A stretch of 17,970 nucleotides of DNA from a virus, in the UHGV virus genome UHGV-0122840. The stretch is one strand, 5' to 3'. Below, piece by piece: positions 7,009-16,991 of the stretch. A model generated the notes under the pieces. The model was not told the origin of the DNA and did not search any database. It saw nothing but the letters and a program-made list of their open reading frames with translations. The position numbers and the translations under genes were made by a program. Positions within the stretch are counted from its first letter, which is position 1. Every line of letters starts with the position of its first letter.

Positions 7009-7656
7009 TCATCCAAACGTCTCTTCAGGCCACTGAGCCTTAACTACCTTGCCTATGATGCGGCATGTGTGATCGCAGTCCAGGGTTCTGTATGCCGGAT
7101 TCAATGGAACCAAGTAACTAACCCCTGCATCCTTCTCATACTTCTTGAACGTTGCCTCTGAATCACCATTTGCAGAAGCCACGCAGAAATCCCCAGACTC
7201 TACCGGCTCGGCCGGATCAACGAGTATCAGCATACCCTCAGGAAAACTCGGCCTTACGCCCTGTGGCGCAGTCATAGAATGGCCTTTCACCTCAAGCCAG
7301 AAAGCTTTTTCGCTGGCTTTTGTGGTCGTTGGGACCCATGCCTTTGCATCGCTTGCTGTGTAGCTTCCAACCTCCGAAAACGGCCCGGCCTGCACTGAAG
7401 AAAATAACGGGTACTCATATTGGCGAAATACAGCGTCTGAATCCTCGCCAAACATTATTTTTGCCGGAGATACGCCGAGTGCCGCCCCAAGAACCAGCGC
7501 GTCATCCGCGCTAACCTTTCTTGTTCCTAACTCGTAGTTCCCCAGGCGTGAAGGCGCAGCCCAGCCGCAAAGCTTGGCCAATTGAGCCTGGCTAAGTCCT
7601 TTAGCTTCTCTAAGGGACTTGATCCTTTCCCCGATAATTTCATGCATCGTTTTCAT
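7009..7656 (-). CDS. cI: CI-type prophage repressor: N-terminal HTH_XRE domain plus C-terminal LexA-like S24 autopeptidase domain (215 aa)
   Basis: HTH region [23 protein letters not shown]24 catalytic Ser (GHSM) and Lys (IGKVVK) motifs. Divergent from cro across an operator region. Confidence 0.9.
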
Positions 7657-7705
7657 CCTTTAAATGTAACACGCAACGTGATTGAACTCTGTACACGAAT
7701 TGAGG

Positions 7706-7734
7706 TTGACTGTTAATCACAAATTGTGTGTAAT
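7706..7734 (+). promoter_or_regulatory. PR-like rightward early promoter (TTGACT, 17 nt, TGTAAT) embedded in OR operator palindromes
   Basis: Near-consensus sigma-70 hexamers with a 17-nt spacer about 30 nt upstream of cro. Spacer contains the operator motif AATCACAAATTGTGTG. Confidence 0.6.
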
Positions 7735-7764
7735 GGGTGTGTGATTAATACTAGGGAGACCGCA

Positions 7765-7983
7765 ATGAACAAAATTGCCCAGCAGCGAAAAAAAATCGGA
7801 GTTTCGCAAGCTGTACTGGCTTCGGCAATTGGTTGGGGGCAATCCCGCATCGCCAACTATGAGCTGAATATCCGTACTCCTAGACTTAACGATTGCCGAA
7901 AGATCGTAGAAGGCCTCAGGAAGTTAGGGTGCCAATGTTCTTTGGATGATGTTTTCCCTCCATCCAGTAACAAAGCCGCCTAA
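7765..7983 (+). CDS. cro: Cro-like HTH regulator (72 aa)
   Basis: ATG at 7765 with GGGAGA Shine-Dalgarno; the ORF-track start at 7726 lies inside the promoter. HTH region QRKKIGVSQAVLASAIGWGQSRIANYE. Confidence 0.75.
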   Translation: MNKIAQQRKKIGVSQAVLASAIGWGQSRIANYELNIRTPRLNDCRKIVEGLRKLGCQCSLDDVFPPSSNKAA

Positions 7984-7991
7984 GCAGTACC

Positions 7992-8036
7992 CGCTCTTTG
8001 TAACAACGGACATTCGTCCTACGTCGCTGAAAAGCG
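7992..8036 (+). promoter_or_regulatory. nutR-like site: boxA (CGCTCTTTGTAACAA) and boxB hairpin (CGCUGAAAAGCG)
   Basis: Same boxA consensus and the same UGAAAAG boxB loop as the nutL candidate, located between cro and cII as in lambda. Confidence 0.5.
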
Positions 8037-8122
8037 AGTCCCAAGATATCTGACCAACTAAGGCCATATGCGTTTCCACGCATACCTTTCAACTAACTAT
8101 TCACTATTGGAAATCTTAAGAA

Positions 8123-8419
8123 ATGGAACAAACAAGTTACAGCAAACTATCACAGCGCGACGTTGATCGCGCAGAAACAGATTTACTTATCAACCTGTCA
8201 ACGCTTACCCAGCGCGGTCTGGCAAAGATGATTGGCTGTCATGAATCGAAGATAAGCAGAACGGACTGGAGATTTATTGCTTCGGTCTTGTGTGCTTTCG
8301 GAATGGCATCAGACATCAGTCCGATTAGCAGGGCTTTTAAGTATGCGCTTGATGAAATCACAAAGAAAAAATCCCCGGCTGCCACCGAGGATTTTAAGCA
8401 AATTGATATGCAATTCTGA
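8123..8419 (+). CDS. cII: CII-like transcriptional activator (98 aa)
   Basis: C-terminal [18 protein letters not shown] resembles lambda CII KKRPAATERSEQIQMEF. Position after cro and nutR. Confidence 0.75.
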
Positions 8420-8451
8420 GGGAATTACTGGATCAATCCACAGGAGTAATT

Positions 8452-8598
8452 ATGACAAAACAACTCAGTCCTTACCAGGACAAAATTCACAAACGCATAC
8501 TACGTGATCGCTTCCTGTCCAGCTTCAAGCAGCCTGGTCGATTCCGGGCTGAGTTGGAAAAAGTGAAGCTGATGCAGAAGGAGAAAGGTCATGAGTAA
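8452..8598 (+). CDS. Possible small basic protein (48 aa, [21 protein letters not shown]...)
   Basis: AGGAG Shine-Dalgarno 5 nt before ATG; stop overlaps the O start by 8 nt. Below the ORF-track size cutoff. Confidence 0.4.
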
Positions 8599-9439
8599 TC
8601 TTGCAACCGTAACACATTTAAGGCCTTCACAACGTCGTGTGGCAGAAGTTGAAGATGGTTATACCCGTCTTGCAAATGCCCTGTATGAAGAGCTTATCGG
8701 CGCAGATTTAACAAAAAATCAGAGCAAGGTTGCCCACGCCATATGCCGTAAAACATACGGATACGGTAAAAAGATGGATCGCATCTCTGATAGTCAGTTA
8801 GCTCAAATTACCAGGCTGCCAAGACAGAAGGTAAACAAGGCCAAGAATGAGCTTATCGCGATGAAGGTAATCCTTCGCGAAGGCCAGCAAATCGGGCCTA
8901 ACAAGAACATCGAGGAATGGCAAATCGAAGGGTGTCACTACTCTGGTGATAATGTCACTGCATTGGTGACAAAAAGTGTCACCAAAACGGTGACAGCGCT
9001 GTCACCAAAACAGGGACACACAAAAGAAACTATTACAAAAGAAAAAAGAAATAATAAAAACACTATGTCCGAAAGTGTTCGGACGGAGTGTGAAAAATCA
9101 TCTGACCGTCACGAAGAAACCGACAAGGCATTCGAGGAAATATTCTGGTGTGCAGGCATGCGGAAAGCCGGGAAAAAAAACGCAGCTTCGGCATTCAGAA
9201 CACAGTTCAGGGAATGGCGTAAAACTACCAGGGGTACGGCAAGCGAGTTTGCCACGATGCTGGCAGAAGACATCGCATGCAGGAATGGTAAGCAGTTCGG
9301 ATTCGACAGGTTGTTACCATCGAGCTACCTGAACGGTCAACGCTGGAACGACGAGAAGCCAGAAACTATTCAACCGCAACCCAAACCATCATCCGCAATC
9401 ACCGTATCGAAAACTGGCTACGTGTTTTTCGACAGGTGA
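8591..9439 (+). CDS. O: Replication initiator O-like protein (282 aa), lambda O-type N-terminal domain
   Basis: N-terminal similarity to lambda O ([14 protein letters not shown]...[10 protein letters not shown]...[24 protein letters not shown]...GPNKNI). Iterons and an AT-rich tract lie inside the gene, as for ori-lambda. Confidence 0.85.
8950..9065. repeat. Putative replication origin inside the O gene: clustered GGTGACA / TGTCACC iterons followed by an A+T-rich tract
   Basis: Sequence reads TGTCACTGCATTGGTGACAAAAAGTGTCACCAAAACGGTGACAGCGCTGTCACCAAAAC, then ACAAAAGAAACTATTACAAAAGAAAAAAGAAATAATAAAAACAC. Confidence 0.6.
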
Positions 9440-9442
9440 ACC

Positions 9443-9550
9443 ATGAGATCCAGAATCAAATCGTTACTTATCGCTGGCTATAACCATGGCTGGCTTAGTT
9501 CTGCATTCGTTGAGTTCTGGTTTAACCGTCTCGATCTGAGGTCAGCGTAA
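9443..9550 (+). CDS. Possible 35-aa coupling ORF between O and the primase-helicase
   Basis: AGGTGA Shine-Dalgarno before ATG; stop overlaps the helicase ATG (TAATG). Speculative. Confidence 0.3.
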   Translation: MRSRIKSLLIAGYNHGWLSSAFVEFWFNRLDLRSA

Positions 9551-11430
9551 TGACTCCAAGTGAACTGAGCGACCTGCTTTGGGCGCAGGTTGACAGGGTG
9601 GCTCCGCACCTGTTGCCAAACGGCAAGAAAGAGGGGCATGAGTGGGTTGCCGGTAACGTCAACGGTGACAAGGGAAACAGCCTTAAGGTCAACCTTAGCG
9701 GCAAGAAAAAATGGGCTGATTTCGCTGAGGGAGACGGCGGTGACATGCTTGATTTGTGGATGGCATGTCGTGGAATTAACCTGCATCAGGCTATGCAGGA
9801 AGCGAAAGCATTTCTCGGTATCAAGGATGACGATCACCATTTCGATGCCAAACGTGAGAAAAAATTCTCCAGACCTGATCGCAAGAAAATCGCCCGCTAC
9901 GTTACCAGAACAGAATCCCATCTTGAGTACCTGCAATCGCGTGGCATATCGCCAGAAATCGTAAAGCGCTACGAGGTTGTCAGCGGCAAGGTGTGGAATG
10001 GAGAGCGGGAACTGGATGCTCTGGTGATTCCGTACAAACGCGATGGTGAGTTGTTGCAGGTCAAGCGAATCAGCACTGAGCGCCCGGACGGGAAGAAAGT
10101 CATTATGGCAGAAGGTGATTGCGAACCTTGCCTGTTCGGATGGCAGGCTCTGGACGCTGGCGTGAGGGCGGTTGTACTTTGCGAAGGCGAAATTGATTGT
10201 ATGAGCTATGCGCAATACGGCATCTCGGCGTTATCCGTGCCGTTTGGTGGCGGGAAAGGCGCTAAGCAACAGTGGATTGAGTTTGAGTATCACAACCTCG
10301 ACAGGTTTGAGGAAATATTCATCTCGATGGACGTTGATGATGTTGGTCGTGAAGCCGCAAGGGAAATCGCAAGCCGACTCGGTGAACATCGTTGCCGTCT
10401 TGTTACTCTGCCGTACAAAGACATCAATGAATGCCTGATGAACAGTGTTACCGAGGATGAAATCTGGCAGTACATCGGCACGGCATCCTACTTCGACCCT
10501 GAAGAACTCTACAGCGCGCGCGAGTTTTACCAGGACACTATCAACGCTTTCTACGGCAAGCAGCAGTATCTGTTTAATCCACCGTGGGAATCTCTGGCAG
10601 ATAAATTCCAGTTCCGTGAGGCAGAGTTGACGCTGGTCAATGGTGTGAACGGTCACGGAAAAACGGAGGTTGTCGGGCATATGGCACTTGAGGCAATGCG
10701 TCAGGGTGTGAAGACGTGCATCGCGTCACTTGAGCTGAAGCCTGGTATTCTCCTTAAGCGCCTTACCCGTCAGGCGACGTGCTGCAAGATGCCGCCAGTG
10801 CTGGAAATTGACTCTGCATTTAAATTTTATGACGAAAGACTTTGGGTGTTTGGCCTGACCGGAACGGCGAAAGCCGACAGGCTGATCGAAATATTCGACT
10901 ACGCTCGCCGCCGATACGGGATCCAGTTATTCATCATCGACAGCCTGATGAAATGTGGCATAGGCGACGATGACTATAACGGGCAGAAGGCGTTTGTTGA
11001 CTCGATTTGCGACTTCAAAAACAAAACAAACTCCCACGTCATTCTCGTTACTCACTCGCGAAAAGGAGACAGCGAAGAAAAACCAACCGGGAAAATGGAC
11101 GTAAAAGGCTCTGGAGCGATAACAGACCTGACAGACAACCTTTTCATCATCTGGCGTAACAAGGCTCGCGAGAGAGCGTTACAGAGAGTTCAGAGTGGTG
11201 AAAAGATGTCAGAGAAGGACGAACAGCTACTGGCATCTCCGGCATCTGTTTTGATGCTTGAAAAACAACGTAACGGCGAAGGTTGGGAAGGTGGTGTCCC
11301 GTTGTTCCTTGACGAGCAATCGCACCAGTTCCTGCAACTTGAATCAGGATCGCCATATAGCTACATCGCCAATATGCCGAAATCGGAATATGACGAGGCG
11401 TGGCGACAGGAAAACGTGACGGAGTATTAA
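9550..11430 (+). CDS. Bifunctional DNA primase / replicative helicase (626 aa): central TOPRIM-like region, C-terminal DnaB/RecA-type P-loop NTPase
   Basis: Walker A VNGVNGHGKTE and Walker B LFIIDSLMK in the C-terminal half; TOPRIM-like acidic motif (VVLCEGEIDCMSYAQYG) upstream. Occupies the lambda P position. Confidence 0.85.
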   Translation: MTPSELSDLLWAQVDRVAPHLLPNGKKEGHEWVAGNVNGDKGNSLKVNLSGKKKWADFAEGDGGDMLDLWMACRGINLHQAMQEAKAFLGIKDDDHHFDAKREKKFSRPDRKKIARYVTRTESHLEYLQSRGISPEIVKRYEVVSGKVWNGERELDALVIPYKRDGELLQVKRISTERPDGKKVIMAEGDCEPCLFGWQALDAGVRAVVLCEGEIDCMSYAQYGISALSVPFGGGKGAKQQWIEFEYHNLDRFEEIFISMDVDDVGREAAREIASRLGEHRCRLVTLPYKDINECLMNSVTEDEIWQYIGTASYFDPEELYSAREFYQDTINAFYGKQQYLFNPPWESLADKFQFREAELTLVNGVNGHGKTEVVGHMALEAMRQGVKTCIASLELKPGILLKRLTRQATCCKMPPVLEIDSAFKFYDERLWVFGLTGTAKADRLIEIFDYARRRYGIQLFIIDSLMKCGIGDDDYNGQKAFVDSICDFKNKTNSHVILVTHSRKGDSEEKPTGKMDVKGSGAITDLTDNLFIIWRNKARERALQRVQSGEKMSEKDEQLLASPASVLMLEKQRNGEGWEGGVPLFLDEQSHQFLQLESGSPYSYIANMPKSEYDEAWRQENVTEY

Positions 11431-11512
11431 ATGACCATCTACATCACTGAGCTAATAGCAGGGTTATCGTTACTAATGGTTCTTACTGTATATATTATTA
11501 AGTATATTCTTT

Positions 11513-12124
11513 ATGCGAATAAAAAAACCAATTGATCACGATGAGCTTCTGTCAACATTATCATATGACTCAGAAACAGGAATATTTAAATGGCTAAAAA
11601 CAAATTCAGTAGTAAGAGTAAAAGGTAGTATTGCTGGAGGTGTTAGTGGTGGTTATATATGCATTAGCATAAATAATGTTTTGTATTATGCGCATAGGCT
11701 TGCTTGGTTCTATGTATACAAAAAATGGCCTCCTAAGTTTATTGATCATGTAAATGGGAACAGACTTGACAATAGGATTTCAAATCTAAGACTGGCAACA
11801 GAGGAGCAGAATGCAAGAAACATTGTAGGGAATAGGTTAAACACATCCGGTGCGATTGGAGTGTCTTGGGATAAGACAACTGGCAGGTGGAAGTCTTATG
11901 TTGGTTATAAAAATAAGACAATATCGTTAGGGTATTTCGATAGCAAAGAAGATGCAGCATTCATAGCAGCACTAGCAAGAAAGAAACTATATGGAACTTA
12001 TGCGAGTAAAGCACTTAATTGCGAGCATGAGCTTTTATCTCAATTTAATAATGATGAGGATAAACTTGCGGAATATCTTAAGGAAAAATCTAAAAGGACT
12101 CGAAAGCGTGTTAAAAAAAGATAA
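11513..12124 (+). CDS. HNH homing endonuclease with AP2-type DNA-binding domain (203 aa)
   Basis: HNH motif region HRLAWFYVY...FIDHVNGNRLDNRISNLRLATEEQNARN, then AP2-like GVSWDKTTGRWKSYVGYKNKTISLGYFDSKEDAA. Free-standing between the replication and nin modules. Confidence 0.8.
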   Translation: MRIKKPIDHDELLSTLSYDSETGIFKWLKTNSVVRVKGSIAGGVSGGYICISINNVLYYAHRLAWFYVYKKWPPKFIDHVNGNRLDNRISNLRLATEEQNARNIVGNRLNTSGAIGVSWDKTTGRWKSYVGYKNKTISLGYFDSKEDAAFIAALARKKLYGTYASKALNCEHELLSQFNNDEDKLAEYLKEKSKRTRKRVKKR

Positions 12125-12156
12125 AGGCCTGCTGGTAATCGCAGGCCTTTTTATTT
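12125..12156 (+). terminator. Intrinsic terminator after the first HNH gene (AGGCCTGC ... GCAGGCCT then T-run)
   Basis: Perfect 8-bp stem, 8-nt loop, then TTTTTATTT directly after the stop codon. Confidence 0.65.
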
Positions 12157-12171
12157 GGGGGAGGGTAAATT

Positions 12172-12378
12172 GTGGCTGAGTTAATTTTCTCTGCATTGAG
12201 GATTCTCGGTGCTATGTGGATGGTGGCGACGTTCATTGTTGTTGCCAGCAGTTTTGTCCGGTTGGTAGGCGAAGGTAAAGACCTGGTGGGTGTGCTTTTC
12301 GGTAGCATTTTCCTGTGGGTGATTATCGGTGTTATGCCTGTCGCTGTAGCAAAAATGGCGTGGCGTTTTGTGAGTTGA
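12172..12378 (+). CDS. Small membrane protein (68 aa, two predicted transmembrane helices)
   Basis: GTG start preceded by GGGGGAGGG Shine-Dalgarno. Hydrophobic helices AMWMVATFIVVASSF and VLFGSIFLWVIIGVMPVAVA. Confidence 0.5.
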   Translation: MAELIFSALRILGAMWMVATFIVVASSFVRLVGEGKDLVGVLFGSIFLWVIIGVMPVAVAKMAWRFVS

Positions 12379-16478: not shown

Positions 16479-16991
16479 ATGAAAGAAATAAAATTAACGC
16501 CAGAAATGGTGCTTTCTGTTGTTGATTACAATCCATCATCAGGCGACTTTCACTGGAGATGGAGGCAGGGGAGAGAGAGGACCACTTTGACATGGAACTC
16601 TCGTTTTGCTTTCAAGAAATGCTCATCAATAAATTCTGATGGGTATTTAATGATTATGATTAATGGTAAAGCATGCCCTGCTCACAGACTGGCATGGTTG
16701 ATTGTTTATGGCACCATGCCCGATGGTTTTATTGATCACATCAACAGGGTAAGAACAGATAACCGGATATCAAATCTTCGTCTTGTCACTCATTCCGAAA
16801 ATATGCAAAACAGGAAAATTCAGAAGAATAATAAATCTGGATACCGTGGCGTGTCTTGGGATGCTAAGTACGGGAAATGGAGAGCAAGAATTAATGCGTC
16901 TGGAAAGTGTATTAACCTTGGATACCATGACACTGCCGAACTTGCCGCTGCGGCTTTTGAGGCAGCCAGAATGAAATATCATACCGTTTAA
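16479..16991 (+). CDS. HNH homing endonuclease with AP2-type domain (170 aa), diverged paralogue of the 11513-12124 gene
   Basis: Shares AHRLAW..VY..P..FIDH.N..R.DNRISNLRL.T..EN and GVSWD...G.W.......I.LGY.D..E.AA with the first HNH gene. AAGGT Shine-Dalgarno. Sits between tR' and the lysis genes. Confidence 0.8.
   Translation: MKEIKLTPEMVLSVVDYNPSSGDFHWRWRQGRERTTLTWNSRFAFKKCSSINSDGYLMIMINGKACPAHRLAWLIVYGTMPDGFIDHINRVRTDNRISNLRLVTHSENMQNRKIQKNNKSGYRGVSWDAKYGKWRARINASGKCINLGYHDTAELAAAAFEAARMKYHTV

Follow-up and report, generated by a model that had tools for sequence, protein, structure and literature searches.

Among the closest known counterparts of the locus studied here are the replication modules of Salmonella phage ES18 and similar phages. 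The ES18 record (GenBank, 2005) annotates the trio as genes 59-60-61, and the ES18 type was recognized as a third lambdoid module type both in the epsilon34 paper (2008; PMC2629481) and in the Anderson typing phages paper (2023; PMC10307801). Such systems begin with an O-like initiator gene that contains a lambda-style ori; a 35-aa ORF follows, and then a 626-aa primase/helicase, which records of the ES18 group describe as ‘putative primase/helicase similar to T7 gene 4’. Besides ES18, this architecture is present in epsilon34 (gp50-52), g341c, vB_SosS_Oslo and the Anderson typing phages STMP5/17. Literature searches returned no experimental work on the ES18-type module, including on helicase or primase activity of such prophage proteins.

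Two better-studied systems frame the comparison. Phage lambda borrows host DnaB through its P protein. P22 gene 18/gene 12 combines an O-like origin binder with a phage replicative helicase and has no loader (PMC8022706, PMC10307801); according to Wickner 1984, as cited in PMC8022706, P22 is still dependent on the host DnaG primase.

An ES18-type module in a lambdoid (pro)phage

We analyzed a 17,970-nt stretch of DNA, UHGV virus genome UHGV-0122840, here termed the window. Its replication module shares the ES18-type architecture and consists of the following features:

8452..8598, + strand: 48-aa DUF2740 ORF (Pfam DUF2740, 7.9e-28; phrog_1913)
8591..9439, + strand: O-type replication initiator, 282 aa, with Phage_rep_O at ~aa 1-150 and an ES18-type C-domain at aa 156-282
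8933..9018, no strand: four 19-bp dyad-symmetric iterons, TGTCAC-N7-GTGACA, located by pattern search
9019..9065, no strand: A+T-rich, A-strand-biased stretch, recognized by low GC, near-identity to that of lambda and nearby homology breakpoints
9060..9091, no strand: inverted repeat flanking the origin on its right, with arms at 9060-9073 and 9078-9091 and TCCGAA-AGTG-TTCGGA as inner hairpin
9443..9550, + strand: 35-aa ORF separating the initiator and helicase genes, member of the ES18 gp60 family (phrog_21848, 1.7e-27)
9550..11430, + strand: 626-aa primase-helicase of T7 gp4/Twinkle type, identified by Pfam, PDB sequence search, PHROGs and motifs

The gp59-type C-domain, gp60-type 35-aa ORF and gp61-type primase-helicase are thus contiguous and coupled, and from its sequence the locus is probably an intact ES18-type module, carried by a lambdoid phage or prophage whose host is E. 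coli, Shigella or Salmonella, for which we propose a DnaB-replacing mechanism. The arrangement is not new, since ES18-type modules have been annotated since 2005; it is an ordinary, previously described lambda-like phage replication cassette. It is also abundant: among 5,426 complete E. coli genomes, 520 (about one in ten) contain part of the module and 169 the full module. As a discovery it matters little: the type has long been annotated, and both the epsilon34 and the Anderson typing phage papers treat it. What value remains is that of a textbook-clean case of mosaicism at the level of domains, since its recombination joint lies within the A+T-rich linker of the origin.

Near relatives are mEp043, Sf101, vB_EcoP-720R6 and SEN22, whose modules match that of the window over their full length, N-domain and iterons included, at 90-97% DNA identity (97% in mEp043 and Sf101); the differences are trivial. 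In mEp043 the helicase gene is followed directly by ninB, while the window carries ~1.6 kb of extra DNA at this position, including an HNH-AP2 endonuclease gene. It is hardly credible that the module is a decaying, non-functional remnant in a cryptic prophage. Such decay would be compatible with the mosaic, prophage-like character of the DNA, with coverage of the full window below 80% in every phage record, and with an initiator four residues shorter than that of mEp043 (RPVE near the N terminus is missing). Every ORF is, however, intact and coupled, catalytic residues are retained, mEp043 and PhiR12_1 carry identical iterons, and mEp043 and Sf101, with their near-identical modules, are viable phages.

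Both short ORFs that a sequence-only reading had described as coupled neighbors of the initiator proved to be real and conserved, lying within 4 nt of or overlapping adjacent genes. The 48-aa ORF shares its last 8 nt with the start of the O gene, to which it is translationally coupled, and it is likewise annotated in mEp043 and PhiR12_1. The 35-aa ORF starts 4 nt past the O stop and ends in TAATG, in which its stop codon and the helicase ATG overlap. In seven phages its length is exactly 35 aa, at identities down to 46-49%, and it always overlaps the helicase ATG; the window and ES18 versions have equal length and 66% identity. The product may have an accessory or coupling role. At the place of the 48-aa ORF, ES18 and epsilon34 have a 162-nt ORF (gp58 and gp49, respectively), matched by position only. 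Elsewhere in the window, the phage’s own SSB gene lies at 2350-2937. A PADLOC scan of the two genes downstream of cI gave no match, and in a promoter/terminator scan of 7600-12200 promoter-like sites were not above chance (5 versus 6.5 expected).

Initiator domains and the intragenic origin

The N-terminal part of the initiator is of lambda-O type, as the sequence-only reading had held. Pfam Phage_rep_O (PF04492) matched aa 16-110 with E 1.1e-37 (128.9 bits versus a cutoff of 28.7), and identity to lambda O is 52% over aa 14-153. The same reading had judged the C-terminal region unlike lambda O, which was borne out: nothing aligns to lambda O past aa 153, leaving the C-terminal 127 residues unrelated, a profile of the C-domain reached only E 2.2 against lambda O, and tblastn of the lambda O C-domain found no match in the window. 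By these comparisons, the C-domain is unrelated to the P-binding domain of lambda O. Instead it is 96.7% identical to that of ES18 and about 97% identical to those of the ES18 group, with a conserved core at ~aa 166-265. An AlphaFold2 model of the C-domain was of moderate confidence only and gave no informative structural neighbor.

The origin lies within the initiator gene, as in lambda. Iterons occupy 8933-8951, 8953-8971, 8977-8995 and 9000-9018, with start-to-start distances of 20, 24 and 23 bp. Searching the window for TGTCAC-N7-GTGACA with at most two mismatches yielded five matches versus 0.51 expected, a count reached in 0 of 200 shuffles. A lambda-like, intragenic cluster of iterons and A+T-rich DNA had been proposed at 8950-9065; its nature and right edge stand, but its left edge moves to 8933 because there are four iterons, not three. 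These iterons are predicted from sequence to be the binding sites of the initiator N-domain, and iteron type tracks N-domain type in six phages (window, mEp043, PhiR12_1, ES18, epsilon34 and lambda).

Lambda shares with the window the Phage_rep_O N-domain, four similarly spaced 19-bp dyad iterons and a near-identical A+T-rich stretch followed by a palindrome; it differs in its iteron sequence class, in its unrelated C-domain and in the presence of P. GC content falls to 0.20 in 9020-9069, and the A+T-rich stretch differs from that of lambda, ACACAAAAGA(C/A)ACTATTACAAAAGAAAAAAGAAA, by one mismatch. This DNA encodes the linker between the initiator N- and C-domains. We predict that the stretch at 9019-9065 is both the unwinding element and the mosaic joint of the N-domain and C-domain cassettes. 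The inverted repeat at 9060-9091 stands at the place of lambda’s own, different palindrome. It also occurs in ES18, epsilon34 and mEp043, while PhiR12_1 has the right arm of lambda instead; on this distribution, the repeat travels with the C-domain/helicase cassette.

A primase-helicase in the position of P

The next large gene had been read as encoding a 626-aa TOPRIM and P-loop helicase protein rather than lambda P, and profile searches agreed. Pfam assigned Toprim_2 (3.1e-12) and AAA_25 (2.1e-6), with DnaB_C matching below cutoff (3.3e-5; 23.9 bits versus 27). PDB sequence searches retrieved T7 gp4 (1.7e-22, helicase aligned over aa 192-539) and Twinkle (5e-14), and PHROGs placed the protein in phrog_239, ‘DNA primase/helicase’ (2e-170). 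Within the ES18-type group, the protein is 93-99% identical. Its layout comprises a zinc-less ZBD-like region (~aa 1-95), a DnaG-type RNA-polymerase/TOPRIM domain (~100-310), an SF4 RecA-like helicase (~340-600) and an acidic C-terminal tail with Tyr as the last residue.

T7 gp4 and Twinkle share this order of ZBD-like region, TOPRIM RNA-polymerase domain, linker and SF4 helicase, with catalytic motifs kept and fold matches to the window protein at E about 1e-11. The motifs are EGEID at 212, DVDD at 261, KDINEC at 290, GHGKT at 368, FIIDSL at 461, VTHSRK at 500 and KQRNGEG at 572, the last a putative arginine finger (KxRxG) assigned by motif only. TOPRIM residues E212, D261, D263 and D291 are invariant relative to T7 and across 51 homologues, and alignment with T7 gp4 showed GHGKT at 368, D464 and H502 to be invariant as well. 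Judged by these alignments and motifs, all catalytic motifs of the protein are intact. A structure model (pLDDT 92.4) matched Aquifex DnaG (E 1.9e-13) and the T7 gp4 primase (E 4.7e-12).

The N-terminal domain departs from T7 gp4. Whereas the ZBD of T7 gp4 carries four zinc-ligand cysteines, the window protein has none at these positions (0 of 4), and the fold is retained: the model matched 1d0q (E 5.5e-3) and full-length 2au3. A Cys4 zinc ribbon is absent from the N terminus, where C73 is the sole Cys in aa 1-110, and no Cys or His is conserved in the ZBD-like region of the 51 homologues. Because the zinc ligands are lost, primase activity and template specificity are uncertain. The setting differs too. 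T7 initiates from transcription-primed origins, and its gp4 loads on single-stranded DNA without a dedicated loader; the window protein belongs to a temperate phage with an initiator predicted to bind iterons, and no DNA polymerase is encoded in the window.

No counterpart of lambda P or of a DnaC-type loader was detected. In BLASTP, the 626-aa protein aligned with lambda P at E 0.8 at best. With lambda P and a DnaC-like loader as tblastn queries, the whole window yielded chance matches only (E ≥ 0.2), and no P- or DnaC-type loader appeared in Pfam scans that covered the main ORFs from cII to Q, several short ones aside. Where lambda uses P to obtain host DnaB, the window thus has a phage primase-helicase gene. 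P22 resembles the window in its pairing of proteins but employs a DnaB-type helicase, unlike the gp4/Twinkle-type fusion with a DnaG-type primase domain found here; the 626-aa protein has no DnaB N-terminal domain, its N-terminal half being primase.

From these data we infer, with good support, that the phage helicase would be recruited directly in place of host DnaB. Host DnaB might instead still be used by an unspecified route, with the 626-aa protein acting chiefly in priming or as a helicase of the late, rolling-circle stage. In some lambdoid phages an O homologue is encoded without any helicase or loader (PMC12315714), and P-independent routes, therefore, exist; the subthreshold DnaB_C match also leans this way. 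We nevertheless consider continued use of DnaB very improbable, as the helicase motifs (Walker A and B, His and KQRNG) are intact and conserved, the gene lies exactly at the place of P and is translationally coupled to the initiator operon, and P22 gp18/gp12 is an earlier case in which a phage helicase takes over from DnaB (PMC8022706).

Mosaicism, cassette linkage and a possible initiation route

Comparison with related phages placed the recombination joints inside the initiator gene. DNA homology to ES18 and epsilon34 begins at 9006 and to Min27 at 9055; from 9006 to the helicase end, identity to the ES18 group is 87-89% (87% over 9006-11434 for ES18). Upstream, ES18 and epsilon34 carry lambda-type N-domains and iterons of the form TCCCTC-N5-GAGGGA, in contrast to the window’s N-domain and TGTCAC-N7-GTGACA repeats, joined to a window-type C-domain, 35-aa ORF and primase-helicase. 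PhiR12_1 shows the opposite fusion: a window-type N-domain (97%) and window-type iterons precede a lambda C-domain (100% identical) and lambda P (97%). The term ‘hybrid’ applied to this module in the sequence-only reading is, thus, literally true. Natural recombinants indicate that C-domain, 35-aa ORF and primase-helicase form one evolutionary cassette, which recombines with any of three N-domain/iteron types inside the shared A+T-rich stretch.

We scanned IMG/VR with a C-domain profile. The best 80 loci, all at least 96% identical in the C-domain, provide a count of N-domain classes and do not cover distant neighborhoods. All 80 had the primase-helicase downstream, and their N-domains fell into mutually unrelated classes: window-type (52), lambda-type (13) and HTH_36/Min27-type (12). 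Fraca, LMessi and CharmingMan have more distant versions of the cassette (46-55% identical), in which C-domain, 35-aa ORF and primase-helicase stay together behind a different N-domain, and in Vibrio phage ValSw3-3 a DUF1376 N-domain joined to this C-domain is paired with the helicase.

A strict rule of co-evolution between C-domain and primase-helicase was considered and rejected, as distant homologues of each were found without the other. The C-domain core is paired with a DnaC-like loader in Pseudomonas phage Skulduggery and with small, unrelated proteins in Vibrio phages PVA1 and D65. Conversely, Pseudomonas phages Marin, AF and CF60a and Vibrio phage 1.064.O encode primase-helicases of the same family (39-60% identical) with no C-domain upstream.

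These exceptions bear on how the helicase would reach the origin. They would be expected if the initiator only opened the origin and the ring helicase then loaded itself on melted A+T-rich DNA without specific C-domain contact, as the established loader independence of T7 gp4 on single-stranded DNA would also allow. The C-domain core would then have a generic role (oligomerization, single-stranded DNA binding or contact with a host factor), and linkage would reflect operon co-inheritance only. We think this account unlikely. Among the natural recombinants examined in enteric phages, the downstream partner could always be predicted from the C-domain type, irrespective of the N-domain/iteron type, and breakpoints fall exactly at the domain linker, not between genes. 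The latter is the expected pattern if C-domain and helicase must match, as do the lambda O C-domain and P.

Under direct recruitment by the initiator, transcription from pR would be followed by binding of the N-domain to the iterons, giving an O-some-like complex, and the adjacent A+T-rich DNA would melt. The C-domain, possibly helped by the 35-aa protein, would bring the phage ring helicase-primase onto the opened DNA, so that initiation would proceed without lambda P, host DnaB or DnaC and perhaps without DnaG. Synthesis would be carried out by host Pol III, and the phage SSB (2350-2937) may assist. More specifically, and rather doubtfully, the 35-aa protein and C-domain could together serve as a specialized adaptor for loading a gp4-like ring helicase at an iteron origin, with the A+T-rich stretch and the hairpin at 9060-9091, which move along with them, as the site of helicase entry or priming. 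If true, the module would be a small, portable cassette for initiation that needs no host DnaB, DnaC or DnaG, and also a simple bacterial model for origin recruitment of Twinkle-type helicases with zinc-less ZBDs.

For Stx phages, a link has been drawn between the type of replication module and both the stability of lysogens and virulence (PMC8044961). Their ‘Eru’ replication types are mostly other modules (PMC8044961, PMC8951638). Some Stx2 phages, namely phi24B and Min27, carry the ES18-type cassette, and Eru5, defined by an HTH_36 protein and a primase, may be its Min27-type version.

Gene order, initiator and origin

The region belongs to the early-right operon of a lambdoid (pro)phage, with the genes arranged as listed.

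Genes in and around the replication module
7009-7656, minus strand, cI (HTH and Peptidase_S24)
7726-7983, plus strand, cro
8123-8419, plus strand, cII
8452-8598, plus strand, 48-aa ORF of the DUF2740 family
8591-9439, plus strand, 282-aa initiator (Phage_rep_O)
9443-9550, plus strand, 35-aa ORF (phrog_21848)
9550-11430, plus strand, 626-aa primase-helicase (Toprim_2, AAA_25, PHROGs)

An HNH-AP2 endonuclease gene, ninB-like, dam, ninG, a phosphatase gene and Q follow the helicase in this order. Two short coupled ORFs beside the initiator, proposed in the sequence-only reading, were confirmed: the last 8 nt of the 48-aa ORF are shared with the start of the initiator gene, and the 35-aa ORF, which starts 4 nt beyond the stop of the initiator, overlaps the helicase ATG with its own stop (TAATG). 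The latter is a real conserved gene, a phrog_21848 member with exactly 35 codons in seven phages, including versions of only 46–49% identity; its pattern LxAGYNxGxL...FV...F...LR is conserved and it overlaps the helicase start in all seven. The annotations of mEp043 and PhiR12_1 include the 48-aa ORF in the same place, where ES18 (gp58) and epsilon34 (gp49) carry a 162-nt ORF. PHROGs (phrog_1913) and RefSeq (mEp043, Sf101 and SEN22) label the 48-aa ORF ‘tail protein’, very likely a propagated annotation error because the ORF lies in the early-right operon and is coupled to the initiator.

The initiator was expected to resemble lambda O in its N-terminal domain only, and this held up. Residues 16–110 match Pfam Phage_rep_O (E = 1.1e-37) and BLASTP aligned residues 14–153 with lambda O at 52% identity, with no alignment past residue 153. 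Inside the gene lie four 19-bp dyad repeats, TGTCAC-N7-GTGACA, at 8933, 8953, 8977 and 9000 (spacing 20, 24 and 23 bp). Allowing up to two mismatches, the motif occurs five times in the window versus 0.51 expected, a count reached in none of 200 shuffles. Immediately 3′, at 9019-9065 (ACACAAAAGAAACTATTACAAAAGAAAAAAGAAA), GC content drops to 20%, the top strand is strongly A-biased and the sequence differs at one position from the A+T-rich element of ori-lambda. The proposed iteron and A+T-rich cluster at 8950-9065 therefore stands, except for its left limit, which misses the first repeat at 8933. An inverted repeat (9060-9073/9078-9091) follows the A+T-rich stretch, at a place where lambda has its own, different palindrome.

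A primase-helicase in place of lambda P

The 626-aa protein, previously read as a TOPRIM plus P-loop helicase rather than lambda P, proved to be just that. Pfam searches returned Toprim_2 (3.1e-12) and AAA_25 (2.1e-6), with a sub-threshold DnaB_C match; a PDB sequence search returned T7 gp4 (1.7e-22, residues 192–539) and Twinkle (5e-14); and PHROGs assigned it to ‘DNA primase/helicase’ (2e-170). It shows no similarity to lambda P, and homologues of lambda P, the lambda O C-domain or a DnaC-like loader were found nowhere in the window. In an alignment with T7 gp4 and two distant relatives, E212 (TOPRIM Glu), D261/D263 (DxD pair), D291, the Walker A motif G368-x-G370-K371, D464 and H502 are invariant; a DnaB-like motif, KQRNGEG, lies at 572. 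An AlphaFold2 model of residues 1–330 (mean pLDDT 92.4) matches Aquifex DnaG (ZBD and RPD, E = 1.9e-13), T7 gp4 primase, Twinkle and the DnaG zinc-binding domain 1d0q. None of T7's four zinc cysteines is present, C73 being the sole cysteine in the first 110 residues, and no Cys or His is conserved in the N-terminal region across 51 homologues. The ZBD fold is thus kept although its metal ligands are gone, a situation shared with animal Twinkle.

The helicase ends (11400-11430) in an acidic tail with an aromatic last residue (...EAWRQENVTEY), and the terminal Tyr recurs in Fraca and ValSw3-3. This recalls T7 gp4, whose acidic, Phe-terminated tail binds T7 DNA polymerase. Since the window contains no DNA polymerase gene, the tail may contact a host replisome protein.

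Mosaic structure and proposed helicase recruitment

The replication region is certainly an ordinary, already described ES18-type lambdoid module. Its 3.1 kb share 97% identity with mEp043, Sf101 and vB_EcoP-720R6 and 90% with SEN22, and its origin specificity is of the mEp043/Sf101 class. The ES18 record (AY736146) lists gp59 (‘similar to phage lambda gpO’), a rep_origin ‘similar to lambda ori’, the 35-aa gp60 and gp61 (‘putative primase/helicase; similar to phage T7 gene 4’); the same is stated for epsilon34 genes 49–53 (PMC2629481), and a third lambdoid module type is described in the Anderson typing phage paper (PMC10307801). Of 5,426 complete E. coli genomes, 520 contain part of the module and 169 contain 80% or more of it. 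A literature search found no biochemical or genetic study of the module.

The suggested hybrid of a lambda-O-type initiator and a primase-helicase was borne out by homology joints at 9006 and 9055. Homology to ES18/epsilon34 runs from 9006, inside iteron 4, to the end of the helicase gene, and that to Min27 starts where the A+T-rich stretch ends (9055). PhiR12_1 is the reciprocal recombinant: its O carries the window's N-domain (97%) and identical iterons, followed past the A+T-rich stretch by a C-domain 100% identical to that of lambda O, a P 97% identical to lambda's and ren. From these mosaics, all four combinations of window or lambda N-domain with either ES18-type C-domain and primase-helicase or lambda C-domain and P exist. 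In all four, the iteron class tracks the N-domain, and the right origin flank, C-domain and downstream partner travel together. Among the best IMG/VR matches (80 retrieved loci, C-domain at least 96% identical), all 80 have the primase-helicase downstream, behind N-domains of three unrelated classes (52 window-type, 13 lambda-type and 12 Min27/HTH_36-type). Cassettes of Fraca, LMessi and CharmingMan (46–55% identity) keep the C-domain, 35-aa ORF and a 623-aa primase-helicase after an N-domain lacking a Pfam match, and Vibrio phage ValSw3-3 pairs a DUF1376 N-domain and window-type C-domain with the helicase.

In lambda, origin specificity resides in the N-terminus of O and P specificity in its C-terminus, a division paralleled by this mosaic pattern. 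Chiefly on this parallel, the C-domain would be the helicase-recruiting end of the initiator; we regard such recruitment as likely. The earlier observation is thus confirmed, and its interpretation, that a phage-encoded helicase is recruited, is supported. The conserved core of the C-domain (~80 residues; AFExFW, QFGFD, YLNxxRWxDE) is also present in Pseudomonas phage Skulduggery, whose initiator precedes a DnaC-like loader, and in Vibrio phages PVA1 and D65, where small unknown proteins follow the initiator. Conversely, phmmer and profile searches upstream of 39–60% identical primase-helicases in Pseudomonas phages Marin, AF and CF60a and Vibrio phage 1.064.O did not find it. The function of the core may thus be broader, and the choice of partner may be determined elsewhere.

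A short C-terminal motif recurs in several initiators regardless of downstream partner (KPDWMRG in ValSw3-3, KPSWARG in Vibrio 1.064.O, LPDWMRG in Skulduggery and TDWIYG in lambda O; compared phage loci L009, L012, L006 and L002), whereas the window's O ends in TGYVFFDR.

Probable homing elements and neighbouring genes

Min27 (L010:6093-7112) carries a 340-aa insertion in the helicase Walker A loop (GHGK / ...THN / TEVV), at a site corresponding to the position after codon 371 (about 10660) in the window, whose copy lacks it. With its matches to LAGLIDADG_3 and Hom_end_hint, the insertion is probably an intein. The helicase match is also split in phi24B and Stx2a_F403/F451, which probably share the insertion, and in 4 of the 80 IMG/VR loci. 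The window itself has two free-standing HNH_3-AP2 endonuclease genes (11513-12124 and 16479-16991); the first lies directly 3′ of the helicase, within ~1.6 kb absent from mEp043, and ends at a bidirectional terminator-like hairpin (12123-12150). In three IMG/VR loci (L041, L055 and L056) an insertion of ~490 nt separates the 35-aa ORF from the helicase; that of L041 (L041:4462-4956) encodes an HNH endonuclease of 164 aa. The surroundings of the helicase gene look like a homing-element hotspot. A strongly hydrophobic 34-aa ORF (11431-11535; weak match to phrog_5907 only, 4e-4) starts right after the helicase stop (TAAATG) and overlaps the HNH-AP2 gene start.

In initiators of the Min27 (HTH_36) type, the repeats take the form of tandem GGAGAAL peptide units (L010:4094-4762; IMG/VR loci L068, L074, L076 and others). 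Predicted lengths of these initiators range from 243 to 282 aa across loci, possibly owing to repeat number. The GenBank ‘O’ of Min27 is out of frame past the origin, as the annotated C-terminus corresponds to the window's O read in the +1 frame.

Within the 3′ end of cII, a minus-strand terminator-like hairpin (8368-8395; 12 pairs and a T-rich tail) occupies the position that the oop antisense RNA terminator has in lambda. Directly downstream of cI, two minus-strand genes with overlapping stop and start codons (6524-7012, 162 aa; 5907-6527, 206 aa) lie where lambda carries rexA and rexB. They had no match in Pfam or PADLOC and matched unknown-function families in PHROGs (phrog_5893 and phrog_5820), and are candidate lysogen-expressed exclusion or defence genes. 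On the early-left minus strand (2030-3614) lie genes for the anti-RecBCD protein Abc2 (2030-2326), for a phage SSB (2350-2937) and for a Sak4-like annealing protein (2934-3614); the phage thus supplies its own SSB beside its own helicase-primase.
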